A DNA stretch of 64,000 nt from Eubacteriales bacterium (lineage in GTDB: Bacteria > Bacillota > Clostridia > Oscillospirales > CAG-272), in NCBI GenBank assembly GCA_045533775.1, contig JAZSIK010000003.1, forward strand, positions 468 to 64,467. The letters run 5' to 3'. A program made the translations under genes and the position numbers. Shown here one piece after another: positions 14,777 through 54,782 of the stretch. The notes under the pieces were generated by a model, which was given only the letters and a program-made list of their open reading frames with translations, did not search any database and was not told the origin of the DNA. Position 1 is the first letter of the stretch, and each line of letters starts with the position of its first letter.

Positions 14777-14804
14777 AAAGGCTATCTCCGCAGAGATAGC
14801 CTTT
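14777..14804 (-). terminator. Terminator after the 1328-aa gene
   Basis: AAGGCTATCTC pairs with GAGATAGCCTT in a hairpin. On the minus strand it is followed by TTCTCTT. Confidence 0.55.
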
Positions 14805-14817
14805 AATAAAGGATAAA

Positions 14818-17800
14818 TTAATCAATCGTGGTCGGATGGAAAACAGCAATATTATTTTGCTTATCGTTAAGCGTTGTGCTGTTTATCATACTGTACTCAA
14901 CATATCCAAGCTTTTCGTTATAAAGACCGATGGTAGCATTGGAATTATGTATCTTATTGTACCTTCCGTAGTATATATTGACGGTTGAAGATCTTCTGCA
15001 GCTTGCCTCACCGTTACCGTTGGTAAGCGGGTTGGTTGCAATAGAAGCACTGCTACCGTTCATCACGACCGTACTAACATAGTCGTTGGCTGTATTGCCC
15101 GCGATCTCGCCCGAAGCACCGAATACAACATAGGAGTAGTCGTAAACATTGAATGCGTCAAAGTTACTTCCGTCACCAAACTCACCGGCATAAACATAGA
15201 CCTGCGCCTGATTGCCCGAGCTGGATCTATAATCATAAGCGCTGTTAAATGTATCAATACCCGTTACGAAGGCTCCGCCGTTACCGCCGTTAAAGGTTCC
15301 ACCGTAGATATTAACAACGGCTCCTCCGATAACCTTAAGTCCATAATATGCGCCGGGACCGGATTTGCCTACAAAGAAGGTGTCTCTATATCCGTTTGCA
15401 GCCGAGTTCGTGTCCTTATATGTCATTTTACCGTCAAAGTTACCGCCGTAAACATCAATTGTTCCTCGGCCGTTGGCGGCAATTCCATTACCGTAATAAG
15501 CTACATAGTTTCCGTTATACACGGTAATATTTCCGCCATTCAGCTCTATTGCGTGTCCGCCGGTAATACTTCTCTTACACTGCCATCCGCCAAGTCCGCT
15601 AAAATATCCAACGGGATCGTATGCTGTGTTGTAATACTCCTGTCCGCTGGCAAGAACCGAAATGTCAGAGTCAGAGCCGCCCTCTGTACCGAGGAAGATG
15701 TTTCCGTTGGATGCATCAGAGCCGGAGCCGCCCTCAATACTGGAGCAGCACACGCCGCCGCCCGCCTTGTTTTCAATGGTAGCCTTTGTAATTGTTACGT
15801 TACCGCCAACCACGCGAACGGCATAGCTGGTAACCTCAAGAGTGTTATAGTAATAGGTAGCCTGATTGTAAACATTCTGCAGACCCGTATGAGTGATGTT
15901 GGTAACTCCCTCAGAAACGAAGTTTCCGCCCGACACATAAATACCGTCGGTATTCTGATAATCAACATATCTGTTGTCGGTTACGTCATCAAACAAAAGA
16001 GGCAGCTGAATGGTATAGCTGTTTGTGGGGCTGTCTGTTCTTGTGTTATTAGAAACAATAGTATAATTACTGCCCTCGGCAAAGGTTATGTCACCATCTG
16101 CAACCGCAACGGCAGAAGCATAAGAGGTTTTTATACTACCCGTGCCGTAAAAGTCAAGCTTGCCGCCGCAAAGTGACGCGCCTACCTCGTGACAGGTAAT
16201 ATCAGCATTTGTCAGAGAAACGCTGGAGATATCAGACTCAGCGCCGTCGGTCATAAGCGTTACACCCGTACAGGCTCTGTATGTCCTGTTAGCGGTCTTG
16301 AGGGGTTTGCCTGCACCGACACTGACGTCTGCACCATCAAGAGAAATGTGGAATCCAACATCTCCAACCGAGATGGCGTAAATACCGTGGCAGTTAAGAT
16401 TTCCGTCAAGGGTAATATTACCGCCCGTCATCTGAACAGAACCGCCCGAGGAGTAGATGCCCGTAGAGTTGTCCTTTGTCAGTCTGTATTGGTATCCTGT
16501 AGAAAGCACCGAACCGCCGTCCAGCGCATAAATGCCCGTAGAGGCATCACTTGTAATGTTGATGGTACAGGGATCGTTCGTCGGATCTGTGGAATCAAGC
16601 TTAACCTGTCCGTTGGCGGCATAGATGCCTACCTGTCGTCCCGTACCGTTCGTTGTGATCTCAGCGAGATCGCCGAGGGTAAGATTGGTATCGGTAATAT
16701 TAAACTTACCAACACCGGTAACGGTAGAGTAAATACCCATTGCTCCGAAGCCGTTAAGAGTGAGATTTGAGGTATAGAGGTCAAACTGACCGTTGTTCAT
16801 CACGATGCCTCGCGAGCTGTCGCCGTTCAGCGTAAAGGTTCCGCCCTCAATATAAAGGGCACCGTTTGCCATATCAATACCGTGGGAGCTCTCACCTGTA
16901 AGACTGAGCGTAGCGCCAAAAACATCAAGCTCTCCGTCGGTCATCTGTATGCCTAAGCAGGCAGAGCCCGCAAGAGTGAATACACCGTCAGTTACCGTAA
17001 GATTACCGTTTTTCATCTCAATGCCCTTTGCATTTTCACCGATAACCTCAAAGTCTCCGTCCTCAATATTCAGCGTACCGTTGGCAATCTGAATACCCTT
17101 GGAATTATCGCCTTCAATGTCAAAGTCTGCGAAGTCAATTGCCAGAACACCGTCAGTCATAAGAATACCTACGGTGCCGTCACCTGTAATGTAAATATCT
17201 CCGTCATCAACAGAGAGCTCACCGTTTACCATATGGATACCGGTGTTGAACTGTCCGTCAATAACGTACTTTGCCGCACCGATATTCATAGTACCCTGCT
17301 CCATATAAATGCAAGCGGTTTTATCGTTTATAGCGGTGGGCACAGAAGCCGGTATCTTAATGTTCTGCTGCTTTGTAAAGCTTCCGCCGCCTACGTTAAG
17401 ACTGCCACCGTTCATATGAGCGTTATTGTTATTAGATGAGTAGAACTCACCGTTATCTATCTTAAGAGTAGCATTACCTTTATTAAGTATACAGTATGCC
17501 TCGCCGGCCATAGCTAATGCGCCGTTGGGCTCCGCCACGTTCCAGCGGTATCTGTCAAAGTAAACCTGTCCAAACGCCAGCGTATCATCCTCTTTTTCCA
17601 TAAGGGTGTTGTCATTGGTGGCAAGATTTCCATTTTGAATAGTGCTGTTTGCGTTGGGAATACGGGAGGAAAACTGACCGTTTACGACATTAATAGTACC
17701 ACCGGTAGAGTTAACGCAGGCAGTATTGGGAAGTCCAAAGTAACAGTAGAAGCTGCCGTTCTGAACCTCAAGACTGCCGCTGGACATCTGAATTGCGGCA

Positions 17801-18804
17801 TAGTAATTCTTTGTTTCGTTGATTGTTGAAGCATGCTCTATTACGTTTTCGTATCCATAGATCGCTATTTCAATAGCATCATCTGCCGTAAGACCGAAAT
17901 CAGCAAGCTCTGCCTCGCTGGCACAAAGATAATTATATTCCTGGTCAACCCAATAGGTATAGTACCAGTTGCAGGAAAGACCCAATCTCTCCTGTCCCTC
18001 ATCAATAACGTCCTTACTGGTACGGTAGTAGCAGTAGGTATCAACGGGAATAGTCAGATCACCGCCTGTATATTCCTTGTCAAAATACAGGTTGCCGTGA
18101 GTGTAAACAATGTCGCCCTCCTGCTGGGGATAGGACTTTATTATAGGAGCATCGGTAATGGTCGCAGATACCTCGTAGCCACCTCCGCTACTCCGAGAGT
18201 GGAAAATTACCTGCTCGGGATCAGGCTCTACGATAGTTTTCTTAGCATCCTGAGAGGTGGAAACGATCTCGGTGTTATAGGAAAAATACTCGGAGTATCT
18301 GGGGCCGGACTCAAAGTGTCCGGTAGCAATGGTAAGGGTACCGCCGTTGATATTAAATACCGATCCAACGGGGTTGTAGAGACCGCCTGTACCCTCCTCC
18401 GAGGTGTCAACAACGGTAAGACGAACGCCCGACTTAATATTAAGAATGGGCTCGTAGCCGTTACGCTGAATCTCAATGCCGTTCAGATCAAGAATAAGGT
18501 CGGTATCAAGCGTCTCGGCCTTCTGTGTTACGATGAGGGGGTTCTCAATATCATCAGAAAGACGGATGAAGGAGTATCCCTGATTTATTGCAGCGAACAA
18601 CTCGGTCTGGTTGCGAACCTCAAATACCGAGTTTACCGAGAAATCAAGGTGATCATAAATGATACCGCCATCGGTAAAGATCGCATCGCTCTCACTGACA
18701 TAACGAGAAAGAGTTGCGCCAACAAGGCTGAACAAAAGTATAACGAGAGCGAGAGTGAGTATGCTCAGGTGTTTTATGTTAAAGCTTTTCTTTTCGCCGT
18801 CCAT
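14818..18804 (-). CDS. Giant secreted beta-helix protein (putative adhesin) with SipW-type signal motif
   Basis: RBS AAAGGAG. N-terminus basic-hydrophobic-GATLSRYVSESDA. Pectate-lyase-like beta-helix N-terminal region (LDLNGIEIQ...GVRLTVVD...INGGTLTIATGHF), then an array with 24-residue periodicity. No LPXTG motif. Confidence 0.8.
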   Translation of the reverse strand: MDGEKKSFNIKHLSILTLALVILLFSLVGATLSRYVSESDAIFTDGGIIYDHLDFSVNSVFEVRNQTELFAAINQGYSFIRLSDDIENPLIVTQKAETLDTDLILDLNGIEIQRNGYEPILNIKSGVRLTVVDTSEEGTGGLYNPVGSVFNINGGTLTIATGHFESGPRYSEYFSYNTEIVSTSQDAKKTIVEPDPEQVIFHSRSSGGGYEVSATITDAPIIKSYPQQEGDIVYTHGNLYFDKEYTGGDLTIPVDTYCYYRTSKDVIDEGQERLGLSCNWYYTYWVDQEYNYLCASEAELADFGLTADDAIEIAIYGYENVIEHASTINETKNYYAAIQMSSGSLEVQNGSFYCYFGLPNTACVNSTGGTINVVNGQFSSRIPNANSTIQNGNLATNDNTLMEKEDDTLAFGQVYFDRYRWNVAEPNGALAMAGEAYCILNKGNATLKIDNGEFYSSNNNNAHMNGGSLNVGGGSFTKQQNIKIPASVPTAINDKTACIYMEQGTMNIGAAKYVIDGQFNTGIHMVNGELSVDDGDIYITGDGTVGILMTDGVLAIDFADFDIEGDNSKGIQIANGTLNIEDGDFEVIGENAKGIEMKNGNLTVTDGVFTLAGSACLGIQMTDGELDVFGATLSLTGESSHGIDMANGALYIEGGTFTLNGDSSRGIVMNNGQFDLYTSNLTLNGFGAMGIYSTVTGVGKFNITDTNLTLGDLAEITTNGTGRQVGIYAANGQVKLDSTDPTNDPCTINITSDASTGIYALDGGSVLSTGYQYRLTKDNSTGIYSSGGSVQMTGGNITLDGNLNCHGIYAISVGDVGFHISLDGADVSVGAGKPLKTANRTYRACTGVTLMTDGAESDISSVSLTNADITCHEVGASLCGGKLDFYGTGSIKTSYASAVAVADGDITFAEGSNYTIVSNNTRTDSPTNSYTIQLPLLFDDVTDNRYVDYQNTDGIYVSGGNFVSEGVTNITHTGLQNVYNQATYYYNTLEVTSYAVRVVGGNVTITKATIENKAGGGVCCSSIEGGSGSDASNGNIFLGTEGGSDSDISVLASGQEYYNTAYDPVGYFSGLGGWQCKRSITGGHAIELNGGNITVYNGNYVAYYGNGIAANGRGTIDVYGGNFDGKMTYKDTNSAANGYRDTFFVGKSGPGAYYGLKVIGGAVVNIYGGTFNGGNGGAFVTGIDTFNSAYDYRSSSGNQAQVYVYAGEFGDGSNFDAFNVYDYSYVVFGASGEIAGNTANDYVSTVVMNGSSASIATNPLTNGNGEASCRRSSTVNIYYGRYNKIHNSNATIGLYNEKLGYVEYSMINSTTLNDKQNNIAVFHPTTID
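16369..17241 (-). repeat. In-frame 24-residue periodic coil repeats (GI-x-M-x-N/D-G-x-L...G-x-F...G) in the 1328-aa protein
   Basis: About 7 regular units (GILMTDGVLAIDFADFDIEGDNSK / GIQIANGTLNIEDGDFEVIGENAK / GIEMKNGNLTVTDGVFTLAGSACL ...) followed by looser GIY-type units. Confidence 0.75.
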
Positions 18805-18825
18805 AGCGCGCTCCTTTCTGTTTTT

Positions 18826-20871
18826 TTACTGTATCTGTCGGAATGTAACCTTGGTGTAGAGAGGATATTCCTTTGAATAACAAGGGGATAAGAATAGAAC
18901 CTGAATCTCCTTGCCGCCTACGGTAGCAAAGAAGTCAAGCGTCTCGCCATCCTTATATATTACATCATAGGGGTTGCCCTCCGCGTCAAACATACGCTGG
19001 GAAAGCCCTGTAAGAATAGCATTATTATCTTTGTCGGAATCTCTTTCGCGGACAAACTTCTGGTAGCTGGTCGTTCGGGAAAGCTCGCCTGCAGGAGTAA
19101 CCTCCCTGTCAGGAATGGAAATCGGATCGCTATCGGTAGTGTTATTGTGATACTGAGCAATTATGCTGGTGGCAGCTTCGCTCATACCATAATAACTATT
19201 AATTCCACTATTCTGCTCTTGCCAAGAATATCTATTTCCTTGTCTGTTTACCCGATAAATACTATAGTCGTTAATGGTATATGTTACAGTTTCAGTCTTT
19301 ACTACGGTCAGATTGGTGTATCTGCACGCCGTCTCGGTTTTGGTAGTAACAACCTCAACAATATAGTTTTGTCCGTCAACAGCCTGTACGGTTTTAATAG
19401 TTTTTTCCGTTCCGGAGGAAACCCGATCACCCGATGCATAAGCACTGTAAGTGGTAACAGTATTTTTGGTTATGCTCTCAATTTCAAGCTTATAAAAATT
19501 ATTATTGTTGTACAATCTGTACGCCTGGTCGGCTGCAAGATATTCGTTATCATAGTTTGTCTGGCGAACATACGATGAATTTGAGCTTCTGAAATACAGT
19601 ATATACTCTGTTGCACCATCGGTAGTATCCGGGTTGGTGAGAGGGGAAATTGTTTCCGTGATAGTACTGTTCTCAAAAAAGTGTTCCACATTTGTAATGG
19701 TTGTGACGATCGGCGGATAACGCTTGGTTCGTGTATCATCATCCTCAATAGACTCGCCCACATTATATACCTTGATTGAAGCGATATGATACTCATCATC
19801 GGGTTTATCTGCCCAATATGCATCAAGACCCAGGTTGGTGTCGCTGTTATATACTTTCTCCTTAATGGCGGAGAAATAAACCTTATCGCCCTGCTTAAGG
19901 TTGTTAGGGGATACAAGGGCGCCGACATTATCAGAGTCCTCAACCATAATAAATGCGCCAAGGTGATCGTCAACCAACATCTCGGTAGGCGCAATGGTAA
20001 GGCGGTATCTATGTGTAACCGCCTCGCCCGCCTCAAAGACAAACAGGGGCAGATGAATAGATATCCTATACATTTCAACCGTGGTAGAGATGCTTGCACG
20101 CAGAGGCGGCAGAAGCTCTCCCATCTCGCTGTCAATAGTCTCCTTGCCAAACTCGGAGGTATCCCACGCACGGAACAGGATAACCTGCTCTATGGGCATA
20201 GCAACCTTCTCTATACGGATAGTAAGAGGAGCTGTGACATCGGGATCATCCTCATCAAGCTTAGGCAGCTTATACTCAGTCGTACAAGTGATCACACTCT
20301 CGTCGGCATTGCTCTCAAAGGTAAATGTGTGATCGTGGTCTACGTCAACACCGTTGTAAAGAGCCTTGCCCGATGCGACATGCGACTCGTGGTTGTGCGC
20401 TGAATCAATAAAGTGGCCAAGATTCATCTGCGTGGTTATGGGGTGACCGTCCATAGCAAGAAGCTGGAACGCCAGCTTCTCGGTAAAGCCCTTAGGAGCA
20501 AGGAAATTAATATCATACTCCATACGGACATCCGTCGGTATCCTGTTGCCCTCATCATCGGTCTCAAAGCTGTTTATCACAAAGTCAATAGAACGAAGGC
20601 TGTTAAGGGCAATATCGTCCTCGCCGCCGTCTCCGCCCCAGAAAGCAGTGTTGGAGAACGACAGCGCGCTTACGCCATCAATAACCGCAGAGCCGCGCAT
20701 GGCAGCGGCATTCGGACGCTTGTTGACGGTGTCGCCGGATACATACTTTGCAAAGGAAGCAGTTCCTGTCAGTGCGACAAGAGAGGCTAAAAGGAAGCAA
20801 ACGCAGGACACGAGATTTTTCTTTACAAAATCGCGTGTGTAATCAAATATCTTTTTGATTTTTTCTTTCAT
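18826..20871 (-). CDS. 681-aa secreted protein with SipW-type signal motif and TasA-like terminal strand
   Basis: RBS AAAGGAGG. N-terminus hydrophobic-GTASFAKYVSGDT. C-terminus YTKVTFRQIQ resembles the C-termini of the 241- and 247-aa proteins (DLTVTVQQVQE, DLTVTATQIN). Confidence 0.75.
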   Translation of the reverse strand: MKEKIKKIFDYTRDFVKKNLVSCVCFLLASLVALTGTASFAKYVSGDTVNKRPNAAAMRGSAVIDGVSALSFSNTAFWGGDGGEDDIALNSLRSIDFVINSFETDDEGNRIPTDVRMEYDINFLAPKGFTEKLAFQLLAMDGHPITTQMNLGHFIDSAHNHESHVASGKALYNGVDVDHDHTFTFESNADESVITCTTEYKLPKLDEDDPDVTAPLTIRIEKVAMPIEQVILFRAWDTSEFGKETIDSEMGELLPPLRASISTTVEMYRISIHLPLFVFEAGEAVTHRYRLTIAPTEMLVDDHLGAFIMVEDSDNVGALVSPNNLKQGDKVYFSAIKEKVYNSDTNLGLDAYWADKPDDEYHIASIKVYNVGESIEDDDTRTKRYPPIVTTITNVEHFFENSTITETISPLTNPDTTDGATEYILYFRSSNSSYVRQTNYDNEYLAADQAYRLYNNNNFYKLEIESITKNTVTTYSAYASGDRVSSGTEKTIKTVQAVDGQNYIVEVVTTKTETACRYTNLTVVKTETVTYTINDYSIYRVNRQGNRYSWQEQNSGINSYYGMSEAATSIIAQYHNNTTDSDPISIPDREVTPAGELSRTTSYQKFVRERDSDKDNNAILTGLSQRMFDAEGNPYDVIYKDGETLDFFATVGGKEIQVLFLSPCYSKEYPLYTKVTFRQIQ

Positions 20872-20909
20872 ATTTGCCTCCTTTCATAAGATTTTCTACC
20901 TATTATTTA

Positions 20910-21608
20910 TTATTTATCAGTATTTTCTGTATTATCGTTGTTTGTTTCTTGGTTTGTGTTTCCCTGCTCTTCCTCGGTGGCAGCAGGGGTGTTAGCATCT
21001 ATATTTTCGTCTTTTGGTTCGTTATTTTCTTCGTTGTTTTCCTGATTTTCCTCAGCCTGATTTTCCTCGGGCTTGACTATAAAGGATCCGAGTGCAATAA
21101 TCACAAGGCAGGCTACAATATATAGCCACCCCTCCTCCTGCACCCAGGTTGCGAATACGCCAACCTTTGGGAATACATGTATAACCTCACCAATAATAAT
21201 ATCTGAGGTTACATCCTCGGTGTCCTTTGTATTGTTGTTGTCACCCTTGGTGACAAATCCATCATCTGTGTAATTAATAATACGGTGTGTAGTGGGAATT
21301 GTATCTCCCTCGTGCAGATAGGTGATAATATCACCGATCTTATAATCATCGGTCTTCTTAATGAGAATCATATCGCCGATCATCAGCTCGCTCTCCATGC
21401 TTCCGGTATCAACGATCAGCGTCGCGTAGCCAAAGGCGGAGGGCACGGGGCTCTGCAATATGAACTTGTCAATCGCGAGCCAGGCAACCAGCGCAACAAG
21501 TGCGCCGAAAATTGTCAAAACAATTCCCCAGAGGACTTTTTTTATGATTATAAAAGGACGGCTCGTGAAGATCGCCTTTATTTTTGATACAAAGCCTTTT
21601 TCTGTCAT
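20910..21608 (-). CDS. sipW: SipW-type (ER/archaeal-type, S26B) signal peptidase I, copy 2
   Basis: Motifs VDTGSMES, TTHRII and TKGDNNN, an N-terminal TM, and a C-terminal TM followed by an acidic Asn/Glu-rich tail. I chose ATG 21608, after GGAGGC, rather than the TTG at 21626. Confidence 0.8.
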   Translation of the reverse strand: MTEKGFVSKIKAIFTSRPFIIIKKVLWGIVLTIFGALVALVAWLAIDKFILQSPVPSAFGYATLIVDTGSMESELMIGDMILIKKTDDYKIGDIITYLHEGDTIPTTHRIINYTDDGFVTKGDNNNTKDTEDVTSDIIIGEVIHVFPKVGVFATWVQEEGWLYIVACLVIIALGSFIVKPEENQAEENQENNEENNEPKDENIDANTPAATEEEQGNTNQETNNDNTENTDK

Positions 21609-21660
21609 TTCAGCCTCCAAAACCAATAGGTTTTTCTAAAGAATTGTTGAAAAGTTTTTT

Positions 21661-21685
21661 CTCCCCTCCCCTTTTGGGAGGGGAG
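21661..21685. other. Intercistronic GC hairpin downstream of the 241-aa gene
   Basis: CTCCCCTCCC (21661-21670) pairs with GGGAGGGGAG (21676-21685), a perfect 10-bp stem. There is no U tract on the coding (minus) strand side. Confidence 0.6.
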
Positions 21686-21719
21686 AAGTGTGTTAGTTTA
21701 GAATTAACTCTAAAGCGAA

Positions 21720-22445
21720 TTATTCCTGAACCTGCTGTACGGTTACAGTAAGGTCAAACGTAAGTGTGCTGCTGATCTCTTCAAGAGAATTAAGCGCATT
21801 TGCAGGACCAAGAACGGAATTGATTGCATCAAGAGTTGTCTTGCCTGCCGCATGTGCACCGATCACAGTATCATACTTGTTATTAGCGCCGTTATCAAAT
21901 GCCCAACGCCAGTAGAGGGTGTAGGTCTTATTATTAAGATTTGTACCTGCATCTATATCAAGAGTTACATCGGAAAGAGCAGAAGATGCCTTCCAATCGC
22001 CCTCCTCAGGTGCATCATTACCTTCAATAAGAGCCCACTGAATGGGATAATAAGTAGTGCCGTAGTGAATATCAGAGTCAAAATTAATATCAAGAGCAAG
22101 CTGCGCCTTAACCTCGGTAATACCGTTGATTACAATAGTGGTAGAGCCGGTGGTGCCGGGAGCTACAACATTATTTGCAGAGGCGGTAGCATGAACCGCT
22201 ACGCCATTGTTAGCAACCTTGGTTGCATAAGCACCAGCATCCTTGGTATAGTCCTTAGAGAAAAGATCGCTGGTGTTGGCAGTAATTACGATACCCCACT
22301 GAGCTGCGGTAGCAGTTGTATCATTTACCTGCGCAGAGCTAACATATCTTGAATAAGTCATTGCGCCCATACCAACAACGAGTGCCACCATAAGCACCAT
22401 TGCTATGATAACGAGTGACTTTTTCTTTGTTTCATTCATTTTCAT
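21720..22445 (-). CDS. TasA/camelysin-like secreted protein, paralogue B (candidate fibre subunit)
   Basis: RBS AAGGAG. Signal plus GAMTYSRYVSSAQ. Motifs NVVAPGTTGSTTIVINGITEV, YTLYWRWAFDNGANNKYDTVIG and a C-terminal FDLTVTVQQVQE. Clearly homologous to the 247-aa protein. Confidence 0.75.
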   Translation of the reverse strand: MKMNETKKKSLVIIAMVLMVALVVGMGAMTYSRYVSSAQVNDTTATAAQWGIVITANTSDLFSKDYTKDAGAYATKVANNGVAVHATASANNVVAPGTTGSTTIVINGITEVKAQLALDINFDSDIHYGTTYYPIQWALIEGNDAPEEGDWKASSALSDVTLDIDAGTNLNNKTYTLYWRWAFDNGANNKYDTVIGAHAAGKTTLDAINSVLGPANALNSLEEISSTLTFDLTVTVQQVQE

Positions 22446-22461
22446 AATTAGAAATCTCCTT

Positions 22462-23334
22462 CTAATCTTCTTTTTTATCGTGAAGTCGTTTGTTCATAAG
22501 CCACGCTATGTAGAATACAATAACGCCCGCGTTCGCCATAAGCAGGATAAGCCATAACCAGCGGATCGTACCGCCGTACTCCTGACTTCTGTCGTCATCG
22601 GCGCTGATGGCTATTCCGCCCTGCGCCTTCGGGTCATTATGCTCTGCTGCATAGGTGTTAATTCCCATAGTGAGCGATACGCCCTTTTCTGCAGCGAGAT
22701 CGCCGTAGAGTGTATCAAGCTCATCATTTCCTCCGTGGAACTGCCAACGGAGCTGAAGCTCATACTCCTCATAAGAGGATGCGCCAAGCTGGCTTGAATA
22801 CTGATTAAGTGTGGCATCGCTTACGCGAACCCACTCGCTCTCGCCGCCGATGATGTATTCGCCGCGGGAATTAAGCATACGAACCTGTAAGGGAAAGTCC
22901 TTACTATCCTTGACCTCGTCGCCTACCTTCAAGGAGAAGAAGAGATCGGTAGAATAATAGACCGCCATATTTCCGCTGTTGTACATTGAAAATCTATATG
23001 TGGTCTCTGTACCGGGAGCGATAACCTTGTCACCATCAAGTGATGATACGGTCACCCTGCCCTCGCCGTTCTCATAATCTGCCTTGAATATGTCAATCTG
23101 TCTACCCTTGGTCCAGGCACCCTTATGGTCGTCGGTATAGAACTCAGGCTCTTTACTTACGATAAACAGGATATCGGTGTCCTCGGGAAGAACATTGTTC
23201 ACACGGAGGGCAACAAGTCCTACGGTGAGAAACAGAAGTATAAAGACTATGTTGGTCATAAACATGATCCAGACCCAACCCTTTCTGTCAAAGGGATGAG
23301 CTTTCGGCTTTTTTTCCGCGCCATTGTCAGACAT
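22462..23334 (-). CDS. TasA-like paralogue with TM segments at both termini (candidate membrane anchor/base)
   Basis: ATG 23334 follows AAAGGAGGT. N-terminal TM WVWIMFMTNIVFILLFLTVGLVAL lacks the RY motif. The core motifs VIAPGTETTYRFSMYNSGNMAV and YELQLRWQFHGGNDELDTLYGDLAA align with the 241- and 247-aa proteins. C-terminal TM WLWLILLMANAGVIVFYIAWLM is followed by NKRLHDKKED. Confidence 0.7.
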   Translation of the reverse strand: MSDNGAEKKPKAHPFDRKGWVWIMFMTNIVFILLFLTVGLVALRVNNVLPEDTDILFIVSKEPEFYTDDHKGAWTKGRQIDIFKADYENGEGRVTVSSLDGDKVIAPGTETTYRFSMYNSGNMAVYYSTDLFFSLKVGDEVKDSKDFPLQVRMLNSRGEYIIGGESEWVRVSDATLNQYSSQLGASSYEEYELQLRWQFHGGNDELDTLYGDLAAEKGVSLTMGINTYAAEHNDPKAQGGIAISADDDRSQEYGGTIRWLWLILLMANAGVIVFYIAWLMNKRLHDKKED

Positions 23335-23406
23335 TGTTGCACCTCCTTTGTGAGTCAATTTTCAGCATTCTTCTTAAGTGTCTTTACTTTGCCTTCGGCA
23401 ATTTAA

Positions 23407-24150
23407 TTAGTTGATCTGAGTTGCGGTAACTGTGAGATCGTAGTGAATGGTAAGGTTGTAATCTGTGCCTGCAACCTTAGCGGAGTTTTCGCTGCTGCCT
23501 GCTGCGAGGTTACCGAGAACGGTATCAGCAAGATCGTTACCACCCTCGTATACCCACTCCCAAGAAAGCTCAAAGGTAGCTGCAAGGTCGGTGGTGGGAT
23601 CATAGTTAGCGGTGGTGTTGTAATTTGCATCAACCCAAGCCTTGATCTCTGCGAGAGTACCGGAGATGGGAGCACCAAGCACGCCGGTAGCGCTGGAGGT
23701 CTGAGTAAGGGTGAATCTTACAGGATAGTAGTCTTCAGCAAGAGTGAAGGTGTCACCTGTATCAGCAGTGCACTCGTTGAAGTAAGTACCTGCCTTAAGA
23801 ACAACATCCTGAACGTTCTCAAAGAGAACATTGATGTTAACTGCTACCTCGGGAGTGCCGCTGATCGCAAATCTTGCAACAGAGGACTCGGTGCTGCTGG
23901 TACCGGGAGCTACTACATTAGCAGCGTCGTGGGACTTAACAGTAACACCATTGGTAACATTAGAGTACTGGTTAGAGAAGTTGGAATCGCCATCAACCTC
24001 AATTCTAACACCCCAGTGTGCAACTCTGGCAGTATCAGATGCGCTGTCAGAGGTTGTGTATCTTGCAAGAGTTGTGCCGATCACACAAGTGGTGAGGAGT
24101 ACAAGTACAAGCAAGCCGCACATAACTTTTACATTCTTGTTGTTTTTCAT
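23407..24150 (-). CDS. TasA/camelysin-like secreted protein, paralogue A (candidate major fibre subunit)
   Basis: RBS AAGGAG. Signal plus GTTLARYTTSDSA. Motifs NVVAPGTSSTESSVARFAISGTPEV, FELSWEWVYEGGNDLADTVLG and a C-terminal YDLTVTATQIN. Confidence 0.75.
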   Translation of the reverse strand: MKNNKNVKVMCGLLVLVLLTTCVIGTTLARYTTSDSASDTARVAHWGVRIEVDGDSNFSNQYSNVTNGVTVKSHDAANVVAPGTSSTESSVARFAISGTPEVAVNINVLFENVQDVVLKAGTYFNECTADTGDTFTLAEDYYPVRFTLTQTSSATGVLGAPISGTLAEIKAWVDANYNTTANYDPTTDLAATFELSWEWVYEGGNDLADTVLGNLAAGSSENSAKVAGTDYNLTIHYDLTVTATQIN

Positions 24151-24241
24151 TGTTTTTCTCCTTATGTAAAATAAATTACTTTTATAAAATGCCGCCCATT
24201 ATGGCTATAAGCGGAAAATATAAAACACTGTAAACGAGGAA

Positions 24242-25015
24242 TTACTCCTCGGACTTACTCTCTGAGAGCTCAGGGTCTGTCGGGGCTGCGGACTCTTCCG
24301 CGCCGACGGGCTCCGTAGGCTTTTCCTCAGTAGATTCGGTAGCGGGCTGCTCATTTTCCTTTGCCTGAGCGGCCTTCATAGCCTCAAGCTCGGCGCGGAG
24401 AGCGTCTATGTCGCCCTGCTTTTCCTGATTCTGCTTTTCCTTCTTTTTCATCTCAAGGATGATAAGGGCAGCTACGACCAGGATAATGGGAATAATAACC
24501 ACATATGAGTACTGACTGGTGAAGAGCAGAACCTGACCAAGCTGCCAGATATGTACTCCCGTCCAGAGTCCGACCACGTTCTCCGCGGGAACGGACAGTC
24601 TATCCTCTATGTTGTTATAATCTCCCTTGGTACGGTAAGAAACATCTCCCGTAACATCGTCAATAATAATAGAAACAATTCGGTGTGTTACCACACTCTT
24701 GCCGCTGCTGTCGGGGTCAAAGAATGAAATTACATCTCCTACCTTAAGATCAGCTGTATCTACCTCTTCACAAAAAATCAGGTCACCCTTATTAATTTCG
24801 GGACTCATAGAGTCGGTAAGTACGATGAGCGGTATTTTGCCGAAAAAGCTTGGTACCTTATCAGGATTGATGATACCCTGAACAATAAGCACACAGTTGA
24901 AAATTAAAATGGGGATCAGCAAAACGCAGACAACAACAGCGACAATATTAACGACCTTCTGTGCCTTATTAAGCTTTACCTCGTCGTTACTTGTCTTAGT
25001 CTCAACGTTAAACAT
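24242..25015 (-). CDS. sipW: SipW-type (ER/archaeal-type, S26B) signal peptidase I, copy 1
   Basis: Motifs VLTDSMSP, VVTHRIV and TKGDYNN, an N-terminal TM, and a C-terminal TM followed by a long coiled/acidic tail of about 80 aa. The start overlaps the stop of the upstream gene by 8 nt. Confidence 0.8.
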   Translation of the reverse strand: MFNVETKTSNDEVKLNKAQKVVNIVAVVVCVLLIPILIFNCVLIVQGIINPDKVPSFFGKIPLIVLTDSMSPEINKGDLIFCEEVDTADLKVGDVISFFDPDSSGKSVVTHRIVSIIIDDVTGDVSYRTKGDYNNIEDRLSVPAENVVGLWTGVHIWQLGQVLLFTSQYSYVVIIPIILVVAALIILEMKKKEKQNQEKQGDIDALRAELEAMKAAQAKENEQPATESTEEKPTEPVGAEESAAPTDPELSESKSEE

Positions 25016-33122: not shown

Positions 33123-33790
33123 TTTATCACCGCCTTATATCCCAGACCGTGAACGGTAAGTATCTCAAAGGAGTCGCACTCCGAGAGCTTGGAGCGGAGC
33201 TTTGTCATATAGACATCCACCGTTCTGGTGCTTGCCTGTGTGTCCACGTCCCAGAACTCATCCATCAGCTGAGTGCGGGTAAAGGTCTTTTTCGGATAGG
33301 AGAGCAGCTTGTAGAGCAAGTCAAACTCCCTTGCGGTAAGCGATATTTCCTCGCCTCTCAGGGTTGCGCTTCTCTCATCGGTATCCATTATGAACTCGCC
33401 TACCTCAAGGCGACGGCTGGAGGCAATTTTTGCCCGTCTCAGCAAAGCGCCGATGCGGAGAAAGAGCTCGTCAAGGTCAATAGGCTTTACCATATAATCG
33501 TCAATGCCTATCCTGTATCCTCTCTGCTTCGCGGCAAAGTCATCTCTCGCGGTCATAAAGAGGATGGGAATGTCGCTGTTCAGCGAGCGCACAGTCTTTG
33601 CCAGCTCAAAGCCGTCAATATCCGGCATCATAATATCAGATACGATAAGGTCAAAGGTGGTCTTATACATCTCGTCATAGGCGGCCTCTGCGCAAAAGCA
33701 GCCTACAGCCTCATATCCCGAGCTGTTAAGAAATGAGCATACACTGCGGTTAAGCTCTCTGTCATCCTCCACAACCAATATTTTGAACAT
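33119..33790 (-). CDS. OmpR-family response regulator
   Basis: Receiver domain (ILVVEDD...DLIVSDIMMPDIDG) and a winged-helix C-terminus (LTAREFDLLYKLL...VDVYMTKLRSKL). Confidence 0.9.
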   Translation of the reverse strand: MFKILVVEDDRELNRSVCSFLNSSGYEAVGCFCAEAAYDEMYKTTFDLIVSDIMMPDIDGFELAKTVRSLNSDIPILFMTARDDFAAKQRGYRIGIDDYMVKPIDLDELFLRIGALLRRAKIASSRRLEVGEFIMDTDERSATLRGEEISLTAREFDLLYKLLSYPKKTFTRTQLMDEFWDVDTQASTRTVDVYMTKLRSKLSECDSFEILTVHGLGYKAVIK

Positions 33791-34402: not shown

Positions 34403-35719
34403 TTATTTTATGCTATTGATAACGCCTGAGAAGAGTACCACCCCGTAGGCATCGGTGAGGATAAAGCCAAAGGCACCGTCTACCGCGTAATCGTGGTAAA
34501 CATCGGTATAGGGACCGGGTCCTGCCGCACCTGCCCCGGGAATAACGGTGACAGCCGCACCCTCAATACCTCTGGCGTTTACATCTATGCTGCACTTATG
34601 GATAACTCCCTCGCAGGCGATCTCGGCGTCGGTGATACCCGAAAAGTCGCATCTCTTAATATCAAAGAGCGACTCTATACCAAAGTCCTCGCGAAGAATA
34701 TCGGCAATATCTCCGTCATAATCTGCCTTGTACTCGGGGAACAGGACTCTTGTGTGGTGGAGGAGCATATTTTCGTCATCCTTATAGCCCCAATCGGTGA
34801 AATTATTTACGGTATAAATATTCTCGGGAGTGAACACCTCATCAAGCGTGCGTCCCTCGCTCGGGAGAATGAACTTAATGTCAAATCCGTGGTTTGTGCG
34901 TGTGAAGAAGGAGGTAAAGCCATCTCCCTCGTATGCCTTGCCGTTGAAGTAATAGCCTCTGAGCAGGAAGGTCTTTTTTACGCTGCCGTCAGCATTTCTG
35001 AAATCGTATACATCGTCGGCAAATCTCAGCTCATCACCAAAGGCGTTCCATATTTCCTTAAGATAGAAGGTGTTGATAAGGGTTATCAGCGTCTCAGGAG
35101 AAAGATCAAGTCCTGCGTCAATCACGCCGTGAGTTTTGTCCTTGATGTAAGCGTTGATAGCGCGGCTCGCATTGCTGCTCATAAAATCCACGCGGAAGAG
35201 ATCGCAGTTAAAGTTTTGCGCCAGGTTGTCAATACCCGATCGGTGAAGCTCTACCCCGTCGTCAGCCCAGATGGAGTTGGAAAGCTCCTCAAAGGCGGAT
35301 ACCCTCTTGTTTTCCAGCATATCGGTGTAGTAGAACTCGCGGTTGGAAAAGGCGTAGAGGTACTTGGTAAAGTCACGCACCTCCTCATAGCCGACACCGA
35401 CAGCCCTCAGCATCTCCTCTCTTGTTTCTCCACCGCTACATTCGGTGGCAAGAGCCAGCGCCATATATACAGAAACAGGAGAAATGCAAATATTTGTTTG
35501 CATTTCGCTATCAAAACAGATCTCATATGTAAGCTTTGCGGCAAATCGCTCAAGCTTATCAATAAACTGAACATAGTCCTCAGCGCGGGCATCATTATAG
35601 CTAACGCTGATTTTTTCGGCAGCGGGAGCAAGCATATCCTTCTCATACTCCGCGTCAAAGCAGGACATAAGCGACAGACATAGCGACAGGACAAGAGCGA
35701 GCGAAACGATCTTCTTCAT
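34403..35719 (-). CDS. Serpin-family lipoprotein (serine protease inhibitor)
   Basis: Lipobox LSLMSC. Serpin motifs ICISPVSVYMALALATECSGGETREEM and NTFYLKEIW, hinge-like RGIEGAAVTV, then a Gly/Ala/Pro-rich loop and AVDGAFGFIL. Confidence 0.8.
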   Translation of the reverse strand: MKKIVSLALVLSLCLSLMSCFDAEYEKDMLAPAAEKISVSYNDARAEDYVQFIDKLERFAAKLTYEICFDSEMQTNICISPVSVYMALALATECSGGETREEMLRAVGVGYEEVRDFTKYLYAFSNREFYYTDMLENKRVSAFEELSNSIWADDGVELHRSGIDNLAQNFNCDLFRVDFMSSNASRAINAYIKDKTHGVIDAGLDLSPETLITLINTFYLKEIWNAFGDELRFADDVYDFRNADGSVKKTFLLRGYYFNGKAYEGDGFTSFFTRTNHGFDIKFILPSEGRTLDEVFTPENIYTVNNFTDWGYKDDENMLLHHTRVLFPEYKADYDGDIADILREDFGIESLFDIKRCDFSGITDAEIACEGVIHKCSIDVNARGIEGAAVTVIPGAGAAGPGPYTDVYHDYAVDGAFGFILTDAYGVVLFSGVINSIK

Positions 35720-36005: not shown

Positions 36006-37367
36006 TCAGGCCTTTGTAATTACATCTGCTCTTTCATAAGTGCAGCTCTCGGCATTTACAGAAAGCTCTAAGCTCTCTGCCCCGTCGGGCGGATAGATGG
36101 TTGCCGACAGGACTCTGCCATCCTCAAATATCTCTACCGAGAAGTCGTCCATAACGACAGTAAGTGTCACTTCTCTCTCACCGGAGTAGGGCATACGGCG
36201 TATGCCATTCAGAGAATCGGCATCCTTTTCCACACCGACGATCGCCTCGCCGGATCTTGAGCGATCAAGCACCCACTCTCCGTCCTTTAATGTCAGAGAG
36301 GTATAGCTCTCTCCGTCGGAGCGCAGCTTCAGCTCCAGGGCGTCAAGCTCGGTTGCCTTGATAGTAACAACGCCTCTCGTGACCCGATCGGTGAGCCTGT
36401 CGGATACGGCAGCCTTATAAGCCTCGGCACAATTAACAACGGGCTCCTGACAGAGTCTGTCACCCTTAAGGGAGACTGCTCTCGGTACTGTCAGCATACC
36501 TGCAAAGCCGTATTTTGCCGAGGGAACATTTCTGTCCCACATATTAAGCCATCCCATTATCACAGGTCTGCCCGCGAAGGTCTGGGGAGCGTAATGATCA
36601 AATCCCCAGTCGGTAATACCGCGGAAGGACTCACAGAATCTGCCCGTAGAATAATCAATTCTACCGATTGCCCAGCGGCTGGTATGCACATTAAGATGGG
36701 TGCCGTTCTCACTGGGCTGATACTGCTCGCAGAATAGAAGATATCCCAGCTCCTCATTATAATCGGGGCACTCTATCATCGTGCCGGCAGAATCGCTGTC
36801 AAAGAGGTCGCCAACAAACTCCCAGCTGAACAGATCCGCCGATTTGAACATAAGTATTCTGCCCCTGCCCGAAATCTTTCTCGCCGCAACGATACACCAG
36901 AAAAAGCCGTCGTGCCGCCAGACCTTAGGGTCGCGAAAGTCACAGGGCGCATATCCCTCGGGCAAAAGCTCCTCGCCGATAATAATACCGTGCTTCTTGA
37001 AGCTGATGCCATCCGAGCTTTCTGCCAGGCACTGAACCTGTCTTATGCTGTCGCCGCCCTGATTCTCTATAAAACCGGTGTACACGAGCCACAGTCTGTC
37101 GTCGTGAACTATCGCGCTGCCCGAAAAGCAACCGTCCTTATCACAGTCATCACCCGGTATCAGGGCCACGGGCAGATACTCCCAGCTTGTCAGATCGTTG
37201 CTGACAACGTGTCCCCAATGCATCGGACCCCACTTGGTATCATATGGATGATACTGGAAAAAGGCGTGGTACTGACCCTTATAAAAAATCAAGCCGTTCG
37301 GATCGTTTATCCAGCCTCTTTCTCCCGTTATATGAAAAGCAGGCTCTTTTATTTTGGTAATTGCCAT
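36006..37367 (-). CDS. Cytoplasmic GH32 beta-fructofuranosidase / sucrose-6-phosphate hydrolase-like
   Basis: No signal peptide. GH32 motifs WINDPNG, FRDPKV and IECPD. Confidence 0.85.
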   Translation of the reverse strand: MAITKIKEPAFHITGERGWINDPNGLIFYKGQYHAFFQYHPYDTKWGPMHWGHVVSNDLTSWEYLPVALIPGDDCDKDGCFSGSAIVHDDRLWLVYTGFIENQGGDSIRQVQCLAESSDGISFKKHGIIIGEELLPEGYAPCDFRDPKVWRHDGFFWCIVAARKISGRGRILMFKSADLFSWEFVGDLFDSDSAGTMIECPDYNEELGYLLFCEQYQPSENGTHLNVHTSRWAIGRIDYSTGRFCESFRGITDWGFDHYAPQTFAGRPVIMGWLNMWDRNVPSAKYGFAGMLTVPRAVSLKGDRLCQEPVVNCAEAYKAAVSDRLTDRVTRGVVTIKATELDALELKLRSDGESYTSLTLKDGEWVLDRSRSGEAIVGVEKDADSLNGIRRMPYSGEREVTLTVVMDDFSVEIFEDGRVLSATIYPPDGAESLELSVNAESCTYERADVITKA

Positions 37368-52891: not shown

Positions 52892-53809
52892 TCACATCTT
52901 CAGCCCGGATGTGCCAAAGCCTTGTACAATGTATTTTTGTGCCGCAACATAGGTTACGAAAATCGGTATACTCGTAATAACCAGCGATGCCATTATCTCA
53001 CCGGTGGTAATACCTTCAATGCTCTTTATTGTTATGAGTGCTGTCTGTATAGGTAAGAGCGACCAGGATCCGTCGTCAGCAGCCGGCAGTATCATTGACG
53101 GCCAGAGATAATCGTTCCATACACCGATAAAGCAGAATACTGCTACGGTTGCAAGTATGGGCTTTGACAGAGGCATAATCACCTTGAAGAATACATCCAG
53201 CGTGTTTGCGCCGTCCATACGCGCAGCCTCCTCATACTCCTTGGGAATATTCTGGAAGAACTGCATAAACAGGAATATGTTGAATATACTGATCGCCGCA
53301 GGTAGAATAACGCCAAGCACCGACATCTGCTGCTTTAACCCAAGCATTATTTTAACGATTGAGTAAAGAGGGATGATTGAGGTCTCAACGGGTACGACGA
53401 TCAGGAAAATGATCATAAAGGACAACAGCCTCTTACCGGGGAAGGTAAGCTTTGCCATAGCGTATCCTGCAAGACCGTTGATAAGTATGTTAAGCACTAT
53501 AACGATCGCCGCGTAGATAAAGCTGTTAAGCGCATATTTCCATATGTCGTAATTTACCAGAACGCTCTCGTAGTTATCAAAGGCAACTCCCAGATTAGCA
53601 AAGTCGGGCAGGAACATATTAAGCGTTCCCACGCTCTCTGCGTATGAGGACTCGCCCTTGGTGGAGGTAGCCAGCATATAAAGTATGGGCAGTATAAATA
53701 TTAAGGATAAAACTATTCCGACAATGTAATAGATGACCTCTTTCACGGTCTTCTTGACGGGTGTTTTATTCGGTCTGAAATTAGGTAATTCTTTTATACG
53801 TTCGTCCAT
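52892..53809 (-). CDS. Carbohydrate ABC transporter permease (MalG-like)
   Basis: 6 TM, EAA-loop motif EYEEAARMDGANTLDVFFKVIMPL. Confidence 0.85.
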   Translation of the reverse strand: MDERIKELPNFRPNKTPVKKTVKEVIYYIVGIVLSLIFILPILYMLATSTKGESSYAESVGTLNMFLPDFANLGVAFDNYESVLVNYDIWKYALNSFIYAAIVIVLNILINGLAGYAMAKLTFPGKRLLSFMIIFLIVVPVETSIIPLYSIVKIMLGLKQQMSVLGVILPAAISIFNIFLFMQFFQNIPKEYEEAARMDGANTLDVFFKVIMPLSKPILATVAVFCFIGVWNDYLWPSMILPAADDGSWSLLPIQTALITIKSIEGITTGEIMASLVITSIPIFVTYVAAQKYIVQGFGTSGLKM

Positions 53810-53810
53810 A

Positions 53811-54782
53811 TTACTTCTCCCTGAACATTCTGCGCTGTATAAGCGTTACGCCACCGATGAATATAGTCATAAGCAGTGCAACTGCCGAGGACTCACCTAC
53901 CCAACGCTCGGTATAACCGCTGTTATACATATAGTAGGACAATGTTACCGTATGGCTCATATATCCCGTCATCAGCATAGGCTGAGTAAGTATTCTGCAG
54001 GCACCGATGAACACGGTGATAAGTATGTATACAAAGGTGGAGCGGAGTCCGACCCAGGTAACATTCCAGAACTTGTGCCAACCGTTTGCTCCGTCAAGGG
54101 ATGCTGCCTCGTACAGATCCTTTCTGATATTGGAAAGACCTGAGAGGAAGATCAGCATCTGATATCCGCAGCCCTGCCATGCGCTGAGCACTATGATACA
54201 GGGCATCGCCGTCTCGGGATCACGAAGCCAGTCGTGAGGAGGAACGCCGAACATAGCCAAAAGCGAGTTCAGCAGGCCGCCCTCACCGGGAGCCAGGATC
54301 TGTTCCCACAGGAACGCCGTGACAGACAGCGAGATTACAACGGGAGCGAAGAAGCAAACCTTGAATATCTTACTTCCGAAGCAGGGGCGGTTTACAAAGA
54401 GGGCAAGCGCAAGGGCAAGTCCGATCTGTAAGGGCACGACTCCCACAACGAAGGTTATGGTATTGATTATGGCGTTATAGAGCATTCCCTTAGCCGAGAT
54501 CTCTTTGAACAGCTCGGCAAAATTGTCAAGGAATACAAAGTTTATTTCATTGGGTCTGAGCAGATAGTAGTCGGTAAACGCGTAGCCTAACGAATATAAT
54601 ATAGGTAATAATATAAACAGGAAGGCAAGGCCCACCGCAGGCAGCAGCATAAGATACGCCGTCACCGTGGATTTTGCTCTGTAGACCTCCTTGTGCTTCT
54701 TTGCCGTGGCAAGGTCGTAGATGACAAAGCCGGCAAAGGCACAGGCGAACAATCCTAAAATTATTAATGAAGTTGTAGTCAT
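53811..54782 (-). CDS. Carbohydrate ABC transporter permease (MalF/UgpA-like)
   Basis: 6 TM, EAA-loop motif LYEAASLDGANGWHKFWNVTW. Confidence 0.85.
   Translation of the reverse strand: MTTTSLIILGLFACAFAGFVIYDLATAKKHKEVYRAKSTVTAYLMLLPAVGLAFLFILLPILYSLGYAFTDYYLLRPNEINFVFLDNFAELFKEISAKGMLYNAIINTITFVVGVVPLQIGLALALALFVNRPCFGSKIFKVCFFAPVVISLSVTAFLWEQILAPGEGGLLNSLLAMFGVPPHDWLRDPETAMPCIIVLSAWQGCGYQMLIFLSGLSNIRKDLYEAASLDGANGWHKFWNVTWVGLRSTFVYILITVFIGACRILTQPMLMTGYMSHTVTLSYYMYNSGYTERWVGESSAVALLMTIFIGGVTLIQRRMFREK

Follow-up and report, generated by a model that had tools for sequence, protein, structure and literature searches.

How TasA-type fibers attach to the cell is unsettled: the role of TapA is debated, the archaeal anchors have been modeled only, and the BsaA oligomers of Clostridium perfringens are membrane-anchored by means that have not been described, with an LPXTG-bearing BsaB homologue suggested as the anchor (PMC11580942). 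In archaea, TafF (Haloarcula hispanica and the Tafi fibers of Natrinema) combines a pilin-like domain with transmembrane (TM) helices and is proposed to be a membrane anchor that accepts the donor strand of TafA (PMC11821415, PMC12337348). In bacterial AbpX loci (Clostridium amylolyticum, Natronincola), anchors bearing LPXTG motifs or SLH domains were predicted by AlphaFold 3 to join the fibrils by strand complementation (bioRxiv 10.64898/2026.01.04.697558). TapA of Bacillus subtilis has a different fold, a macroglobulin-like β-sandwich (PMC9245690). Here we describe a 290-residue protein with a TM helix at each end, encoded on the minus strand of a 64,000-nucleotide stretch (the window) of contig JAZSIK010000003.1 from an Eubacteriales bacterium. 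We consider it moderately probable that this protein is the cell-bound base (anchor) subunit of a TasA-superfamily surface fiber, carrying a decayed C-terminal sorting signal and having a core that enters the fiber by strand complementation.

Anchors of this design have already been proposed, both for TafF and for the LPXTG and SLH proteins of AbpX loci. TafF is likewise a pilin-like β-sandwich with TM helices, and its gene sits with those for the major pilin, for adaptor and tip proteins and for a signal peptidase dedicated to the system. The likeness, drawn from published descriptions, is one of design only: a pilin-like ectodomain with TM helices in a cluster of pilin, peptidase and tip genes. 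TafF differs in being archaeal, in having three TM helices at its C-terminus (in Natrinema, a single N-terminal one) rather than one helix at each end, and in a C-terminus that does not derive from a sortase signal; the Tafi pilins, moreover, use the Tat pathway. The AbpX-locus anchors and the BsaB homologue are envelope-anchored pilin-like proteins found beside TasA-superfamily subunits and a signal peptidase, and distant members of the family described here carry exactly the LPXTG and SLH anchor types of the AbpX loci. Compared by description, the 290-residue protein differs from them in having neither LPXTG nor SLH, keeping only a TM helix and tail, and in its apparently uncleaved N-terminal helix. 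TapA is also an accessory protein of a SipW-dependent fiber operon that links the fiber to the cell by strand complementation (PMC10151520), but it lacks a TM anchor and is secreted once SipW has cleaved it, whereas the 290-residue protein is a paralogue of its own pilins. The latter has no Pfam or NCBIfam match at E≤1, and so none to a TapA/YqxM model if the libraries hold one; because it matches no family and is homologous instead to its own pilins, we conclude from its sequence that it is not TapA. TasA (8aur) and AbpA (7ueg) are the best fold matches of its core and, as here, have SipW-type peptidases in the operon; they differ in being fully secreted, without membrane helices, and have no detectable sequence similarity to it. 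Set beside these systems, the protein would be a bacterial anchor tethered by TM helices at both ends, whose ancestor was apparently anchored by sortase; the family to which it belongs is large and unnamed.

The ATG of the gene, at position 23334, follows a Shine-Dalgarno (SD) site (AAGGAGG, 7 nucleotides upstream), and translation and this context confirm the 290-residue minus-strand reading frame reported in the first-pass annotation (coordinates of all features are collected in Table 1). A hydropathy scan of the protein shows exactly two TM segments, with peaks at residues 23-41 (TM1) and 262-280 (TM2), and AlphaFold2 places helices at residues 17-46 and 259-289. TM1 is preceded by DRKG and followed by an acidic stretch, and TM2 is followed by NKRLHDKK; these flanking charges fit the positive-inside rule and support a topology with the N-terminus inside, the core outside and the C-terminus inside. 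The features that had been read from the sequence at the outset, namely a basic N-terminus followed by a TM helix lacking the RY cleavage site, an extracytoplasmic core, and a C-terminal TM helix with a basic tail, are all borne out by hydropathy, the predicted helices and these charges.

That annotation had also proposed that the protein aligns through its core with the neighboring 247- and 241-residue proteins, and both BLASTP and hhalign agree. BLASTP aligns it with the 247-residue protein at E=4e-10 (30% identity over 166 columns), and the two motif pairs quoted earlier, VIAPGTETT/VVAPGTSST and YELQLRWQFHGGNDELDTLYGDLAA/FELSWEWVYEGGNDLADTVLGNLAA, are real and found in this alignment. With the 241-residue protein the match is at E=8e-4, with only the C-terminal W-x-W...GND..DT..G motif aligned; the two smaller proteins match each other at E=2e-13. 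Profile-profile comparison places the paralogy on firm ground as far as sequence can: hhalign aligns the family of the 290-residue protein with the 247 family at a probability of 99.5% (E=2.8e-23) across 184 columns that reach from TM1 to the final pilin strand, and with the 241 family at 99.0% (E=6e-18). Like the 290-residue protein, both pilin-like proteins lack any Pfam or NCBIfam match at E≤1, and a profile search with the 247 family returned only unannotated proteins, none with a Pfam domain.

The strongest evidence for the function of the protein comes from its homologues. There are 211 close ones (53-82% identity, 280-300 residues, from gut metagenome-assembled genomes, MAGs), and a profile of 24 of these retrieved 863 clusters (at 50% identity) at E≤1e-3 and 134 at E≤1e-30, the weaker matches possibly including pilin paralogues. 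No Pfam or NCBIfam model covers this family. A hydrophobic segment is present at each end in 125 of the best 150 profile matches. Members of the closest clade have the motif E-x-G-G-T-[IVF]-R-W before TM2, in which E252, G254, G255, R258 and W259 (numbered as in the 290-residue protein) are nearly invariant. Most distant members (E of about 1e-30 to 1e-45) instead have LPNTGD, IPQTGD, PPKTGD, APQTGD or similar, placed directly after a conserved DPNAxGG and before the helix and basic tail, and members at intermediate distance have PVTGG, PITGG or PQTGG at this position. Among 146 family sequences, 45 carry an LPXTG motif by a strict definition and 84 by a loose one; two of ten tested relatives (P0178 and P0199) pass the Pfam Gram_pos_anchor cut-off. 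P0274 (Oscillibacter) and P0275, found by profile search with the LPXTG clade, have the same core followed by three SLH domains. One core thus appears with three alternative C-terminal modules: LPXTG, three SLH domains or a TM helix. Because the core and the position of its gene stay constant while three envelope-binding modules alternate, it is well supported, on the basis of these sequence comparisons, that the job of the protein is to fix something to the envelope. The anchoring role suggested in the first-pass annotation is in this respect substantiated by homologues with LPXTG or SLH at the same position.

In a MAFFT alignment of the 146 sequences, residues SQEYG of the 290-residue protein occupy the same columns as IPQTG (and as LPNTG and PPKTG). 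Because this correspondence runs column for column, the most likely reading of its C-terminal helix and basic tail is a sortase signal that has decayed and now serves as a stop-transfer membrane anchor; the direction of change, loss of LPXTG rather than gain, is a reading of an unrooted comparison of the motifs of relatives. The Thr-Gly scissile bond is absent from SQEYG, and the Thr position is variously Y, T, F, H, K or A within the clade, while the hydrophobic segment and positively charged tail remain at the extreme C-terminus (residues 259-281 and KRLHDKKED). A motif scan found no TLxTC sortase signature in the window or in 39 related loci and no LPXTG-type protein in the window or in 32 close loci; the other large exported proteins of the window are lipoproteins. 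The earlier statement that the protein lacks LPXTG, and so is not a sortase substrate, is accordingly true of the protein itself, but it misses that the helix and tail are homologous to a sorting signal.

Given 24 close sequences, AlphaFold2 modeled the protein poorly, with a predicted local distance difference test score (pLDDT) of 60.8; given 146 diverse sequences, it returned a model with a pLDDT of 81.4 (above 90 in the core) and a predicted TM-score (pTM) of 0.70. The top Foldseek match of this model in the PDB is the TasA fiber 8aur (E=4.9e-4, probability 0.99), followed by the AbpA bundling pilus 7ueg (0.98) and, in ninth place, the Sulfolobus thread 7pnb (0.90), with TM-scores that are low (0.28-0.42 overall, 0.30-0.42 for the TasA and AbpA matches). 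Sequence-profile searches of the PDB (A2, A4 and A5) returned nothing significant, AbpX (9rhp) appearing at E=0.56. The residues invariant in the core across the family are A106, P107, G108, N119, P148, W197 and D207. As a separate observation, the anchor family and both pilin families share the invariant motifs APGT and W-x-W-x-F/[EGN]..D..DT.[LI]G (alignment A2); the shared set, in the numbering of the 290-residue protein, comprises A106, P107, G108, N119, P148, W197, D204, D207, T208 and G211. Its Asp/Thr cluster resembles a metal-binding or other functional site, and no conserved Lys that would suggest a BsaA-type isopeptide triad is among the shared invariant residues of this alignment.

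We then considered whether the protein is held in the membrane at both ends or only at its C-terminus. In the hhalign alignments, TM1 pairs with the signal peptides of the pilins, and W74 pairs with their conserved ...AKW. The four neighboring secreted proteins, of 247, 241, 681 and 1328 residues, all end their signals in [TS]-x-[AS] followed by [RK]-Y, whereas the 290-residue protein has V-A-L followed by R-V, so that Leu precedes R44 where Ala or Ser precedes Arg or Lys in the pilins. An [AS] then [RK]-Y site is present in all 38 listed pilin-type orthologue N-termini that show the site, and the signal end GL[LY]A[RK]Y recurs in unrelated Clostridia. Among 141 members of the anchor family, only 30% have A, G or S just ahead of the first polar residue that follows TM1, and 67% have L, V or I at the position that comes next; in every listed pilin that shows the site, this residue is Y. 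Because these positions differ from the Ala/Ser and Tyr of the pilins, TM1 would seem to be a signal anchor and not a signal that is cleaved off. Two other lines favor its retention. In TM-anchored forms the median distance from the N-terminus to W74 is 73 residues, and in LPXTG forms it is 101.5, with low-complexity linker making up the difference; such a pattern would be expected of an N-terminus that remains in the membrane and a C-terminus fixed to the wall. Of 146 sequences, 113 have both Asn28 (TM1) and Asn268 (TM2), 24 have neither and 9 have only one of them. On balance, we regard it as somewhat probable that TM1 is retained in the membrane. The conservation of TM1 (column identity 0.70) was considered as proof of retention and rejected, because the cleaved signal peptides of the pilins are themselves conserved at 0.53-0.70, against 0.30-0.35 for the mature proteins.

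The alternative that survives best, which we hold to be possible though clearly less probable, is an anchor tethered at one end only: TM1 would be cleaved by SipW or a general peptidase, the C-terminal helix would hold the protein, and the freed N-terminal strand would be donated to the first pilin, as in a TapA-like nucleator, the arrangement to be favored if TM1 is cleaved. TapA nucleates TasA by such strand donation (PMC10151520). A42 at -1 with L or I at -3 fits the von Heijne rule, so that A42|L43 formally qualifies as a cleavage site; the SLH-type relatives have a clear canonical site, AxA|AD[ML]VI, that would expose the equivalent strand as the new N-terminus; and the pilin signal peptides, as noted, are as conserved as TM1. 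The A-L-R sequence is, however, not kept in the wider clade (V-I-R, T-L-R, V-V-K), and the 24-residue h-region is long for a signal peptide. The coupling of Asn28 and Asn268 suggests contact between TM1 and TM2, and the correlation of linker length with anchor type points to retention.

In either arrangement, the segment between R44 and W74 deserves attention. It is longer in this family than in the pilins and holds a near-invariant LPExTD[IV]LF[IV]V[GS]KxP, with L49, P50, D54, F57, V59, K61 and P63 invariant in alignment A1. Column identity across residues 44-63 is 0.75, and the monomer model assigns residues 46-58 a pLDDT below 50. Distant relatives have equivalent strands, AISLVP and ADMVIGVG. 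We regard the part comprising residues 49-63 as a candidate donor or docking strand. A possible cleavage site just after it, I-V-[GS]|K, was rejected because relatives have Pro at -1.

The genomic setting of the protein is as constant as its core. It is encoded fourth in an eight-gene minus-strand cluster, in the order 255-residue protein, SipW-type peptidase, 247-residue pilin, 290-residue protein, 241-residue pilin, second SipW-type peptidase, 681-residue protein and 1328-residue protein; a promoter-like site (25823-25851), agreeing at 11 of 12 consensus positions, lies ahead of the cluster. The 681- and 1328-residue proteins have in common with the pilins only the signal and approximately 20 following residues, and inspection of their sequences found no C-terminal anchor on either. 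As with the 247- and 241-residue proteins, neither they nor their relatives have a Pfam or NCBIfam family or an informative name. A synteny scan with one genome per species returned 32 close loci, from sheep, goat, deer, cattle and other gut samples; those labeled to family are mostly Christensenellaceae, the rest are labeled only Clostridia or Eubacteriales, and three have other names. Every close locus with enough flank has the order 255-residue protein, SipW, 247-type pilin (one or two copies), 290-residue protein, 241-type pilin (where present), SipW, 681-residue and 1328-residue protein, and this holds at identities of the 290-residue protein of 47-64%.

The same layout recurs in seven distant loci (L033-L039), of LPXTG type (L033-L038) and SLH type (L039): SipW, a 247-type pilin ending in ...TVTQ[IV][DN], the family gene, SipW, small A[RK]Y pilins and a giant protein. 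A SipW-type peptidase gene lies directly 3' of the family gene in all seven and overlaps it in four (L033, L035, L036 and L038). A 247-type pilin gene precedes the family gene in five, where the upstream gene is on the contig (L034-L036, L038 and L039), and minor pilins of the A[RK]Y type follow in five (L033-L037 and L039, apart from where the contig stops). Dedicated peptidases accompany the pilins: the cluster has two TIGR02228 members, and an adjacent peptidase is found in all related loci examined with enough flank. The 290-residue protein is the most conserved of the cluster (its column identity averages 0.546, and the other proteins range over 0.36-0.49), which fits a hub contacting several partners rather than an exposed fiber subunit, as far as sequence conservation can indicate.

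These features could also be accommodated if the protein were an assembly platform rather than a structural subunit, which we think rather unlikely. Its uncleavable, signal-like N-terminus and the conserved membrane-proximal strand (LPEDTDILFIVSK) would then dock into the adjacent SipW, holding the peptidase beside the core and coupling cleavage of the pilin precursor to strand exchange, much as an usher or chaperone would. No feature of the loci is more conserved than the pairing of family gene and peptidase gene, and this reading would explain it, as it would the overlap of the two genes in four of seven distant loci and the exceptional conservation of the protein. The N-terminus is homologous to pilin signal peptides and has a bulky residue at -1, and the conserved strand lies in a longer N-terminal segment than that of the pilins and is modeled with low confidence in the monomer. 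The complex with SipW is nevertheless proposed only; a need to fix something to the envelope is a simpler explanation of why LPXTG, SLH and TM modules replace one another; and the SLH-type relatives appear to lose the signal peptide, which would free them from a membrane-bound peptidase. Slightly less probable still is a fuller version of this idea, in which the protein would be the Gram-positive counterpart of an usher: an uncleavable signal-like N-terminus and strand would occupy the groove of the translationally coupled SipW, each pilin precursor would be cleaved at the base of the fiber and would hand its new N-terminal strand straight to the growing fiber, and E-x-G-G-T-I-R-W together with the paired mid-membrane Asn residues would hold a TM1-TM2-SipW complex.

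Several points weigh against the fiber anchor that we favor. The contact of the protein with a pilin is itself a proposed interface. A motif that had merely decayed would not account for how strongly E-x-G-G-T-I-R-W is conserved, and the co-occurrence of Asn28 and Asn268 may reflect only a few evolutionary events. The permissive A42|L43 site, the canonical site of the SLH-type relatives and the failure of TM1 conservation as an argument for retention count on the same side, as do the low TM-scores of the fold matches. PF12389 (Peptidase_M73/TasA) and the SipW-cognate NCBIfam models match neither the 290-residue protein nor the 241- and 247-residue proteins at E≤1. The description "TasA-like" in the first-pass annotation therefore draws on a predicted fold that matches 8aur and 7ueg best, though at low TM-scores, and on the SipW context, and it does not extend to sequence. 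The near-invariance of E252, G254, G255, R258 and W259, more than a dead motif should show, and a layout of motif, TM helix and basic tail like that of known sorting signals could mean that the protein is still processed at E-x-G-G-T by an unrecognized protease or transpeptidase (a sortase variant, an enzyme of the rhombosortase kind or either SipW copy) and wall-linked or released, but we think this very improbable given the variable residue at the Thr position cleaved by sortases, the missing sortase signature and LPXTG-type proteins, and the rejection of GlyGly-CTERM, Firmicu-CTERM and PEP-CTERM readings of the C-terminus, as neither these nor other NCBIfam sorting models match at E≤1.

Weighing these observations together, we favor the following working model of the protein as fiber anchor. 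The 247- and 241-residue pilins would be exported by Sec and processed by the two dedicated SipW-type peptidases of the operon. The pilin-like core of the 290-residue protein (approximately residues 64-240) would lie outside the membrane, in which the C-terminal helix and KR tail, with LPXTG decayed to SQEYG, would hold it; the N-terminal helix probably holds it too, because the [AS]|[RK]Y cleavage site is replaced by L-R-V. The core would join the fiber by β-strand complementation, as in TasA, AbpA and Tafi fibers. In the more likely arrangement, its groove would accept the N-terminal strand of the last pilin, making the protein a terminator and anchor like archaeal TafF, because the 1328- and 681-residue proteins have only a pilin-type signal and N-terminal strand and no anchor, which suits the tip. 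Those two proteins would take a distal position and donate a strand only toward the cell.

Table 1. Positions, within the 64,000-nucleotide window, of the fiber cluster and of the parts of the 290-residue protein.
Feature	Position	Strand	Basis
255-residue protein, first gene of cluster: N-terminal TM, acidic linker, conserved domain, basic tail	25008..25775	-	Syntenic in close loci with enough upstream flank
SipW-type (archaeal/ER-type) signal peptidase I, first copy (sipW1)	24242..25015	-	TIGR02228, E=2.8e-26, 92 bits against a cut-off of 51.85
247-residue pilin-like paralogue, signal GTTLA|RY, conserved ARVAxWG N-terminal segment	23407..24150	-	BLASTP, hhalign
290-residue pilin-like protein, TM helix at each end, proposed fiber anchor	22462..23334	-	Open reading frame and SD site
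TM1, residues 20-43: basic DRKG ahead, conserved mid-membrane Asn28, L43-R44 where pilins have [AS]|[RK]Y	23206..23277	-	Hydropathy, AlphaFold2 helix 17-46, residue statistics
Membrane-proximal conserved motif LPEDTDILFIVSKEP, residues 49-63, candidate donor/docking strand	23146..23190	-	Conservation, pLDDT, hhalign
β-rich core, residues 106-231, homologous to whole mature 247-residue pilin	22642..23019	-	hhalign, invariant columns, AlphaFold2 pLDDT >90, Foldseek TasA/AbpA
SQEYG, residues 250-254, degenerate LPXTG position within clade-conserved E-x-G-G-T-I-R-W	22573..22587	-	MAFFT columns
TM2, residues 259-281, with Asn268, plus basic tail KRLHDKKED	22465..22560	-	Hydropathy, AlphaFold2, alignment, residue statistics
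241-residue pilin-like paralogue, signal MTYS|RY, then 13-bp GC-rich hairpin	21720..22445	-	BLASTP, hhalign
GC-rich hairpin, 13 pairs, between 241-residue pilin gene and second peptidase gene; possible attenuator or mRNA stabilizer	21658..21688		Sequence
SipW-type signal peptidase I, second copy (sipW2), ATG at 21608 after GGAGG	20910..21608	-	TIGR02228, E=2.6e-23
681-residue secreted protein, signal SFA|KY, candidate adaptor or minor subunit	18826..20871	-	Sequence, synteny
1328-residue repeat-rich secreted protein (β-helix-like by eye), signal TLS|RY, candidate tip adhesin	14818..18804	-	Sequence, synteny

Other features of the cluster are worth recording. The two SipW-type peptidases (20910-21608 and 24242-25015) are only approximately 30% identical to each other, and each is matched by a separate set of orthologues in the loci, with sipW1 ahead of the 247-type pilin and sipW2 behind the anchor or the 241-type pilin. 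The 255-residue protein (25008-25775) has an acidic Ala/Glu/Pro-rich linker, a conserved domain of approximately 130 residues and a Lys/Arg/Glu-rich tail; its column identity is 0.49, it matches no Pfam or NCBIfam family, and it may be an accessory or regulatory component. A weaker terminator-like hairpin (24192-24214) lies between sipW1 and the 247-residue pilin gene, and this hairpin and the one at 21658-21688 may govern how abundant pilin transcripts are relative to those of the minor subunits. At the position of the 1328-residue protein, the giant proteins of distant loci differ: one exceeds 4000 residues and has leucine-rich repeats (L038, 1-6403, minus strand), and another is a Cys/His-rich protein of 2190 residues (L039, 13336-19908). 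Because different giant proteins occupy the same position, these loci suggest interchangeable tip adhesins on a conserved fiber chassis.

Comparison of window positions 14800-26100 with the first of the close loci (L001, MAG RGIG6173, JAFWXZ010000011.1) revealed a mosaic of nucleotide identity. The fiber cluster, approximately 11 kb from the gene for the 255-residue protein to that for the 1328-residue protein, is 93-99% identical, and both syntenic flanks are 61-80% identical, with breakpoints at approximately 14.8 kb and 26.0-26.2 kb. From the sequence, it seems that two diverged lineages have recently exchanged the entire cluster in place, at one shared chromosomal site. Just upstream of the cluster, two genes (26163-27386 and 27383-29887) encode proteins of 407 and 834 residues, neither with a Pfam match. 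The former has tandem Gly/Asn/Gln/Pro-rich repeats (GGDNNQGGNDQPGG...), and the latter has multiple TM segments and long Ala/Glu/Pro-rich acidic stretches; at 66-69% amino acid identity to their L001 counterparts, they are much more diverged than the fiber cluster.

Farther along the window are a bacterial serpin gene (34403-35719; Pfam Serpin, E=1.6e-40), which adjoins a two-component system (32058-33790), and a fructan-utilization region (36006-60741). The latter comprises three GH32 enzymes (36006-37367, 50339-52885 and 57223-60741), two ATP-binding cassette (ABC) permease genes (52892-54782) and two giant proteins, one of 1319 residues with a FIVAR domain and one of 2108 residues without a Pfam match. 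Its large exported proteins have lipoprotein-type signals (…VGC, …ISC, …SAC, …VAC), not LPXTG ends.

Christensenellales and gut Clostridia are noted for their association with the host, and the loci described here define an unannotated fiber system in Christensenellales and other gut Clostridia. The 290-residue protein also offers an example of a sortase signal that has apparently been turned into a plain membrane anchor. One conserved core, always next to SipW and joined to any of three interchangeable anchors (LPXTG, SLH or a TM helix), amounts to a natural experiment on anchoring, and this family-wide swapping makes the attachment of TasA-type fibers directly testable by exchanging or deleting the modules.

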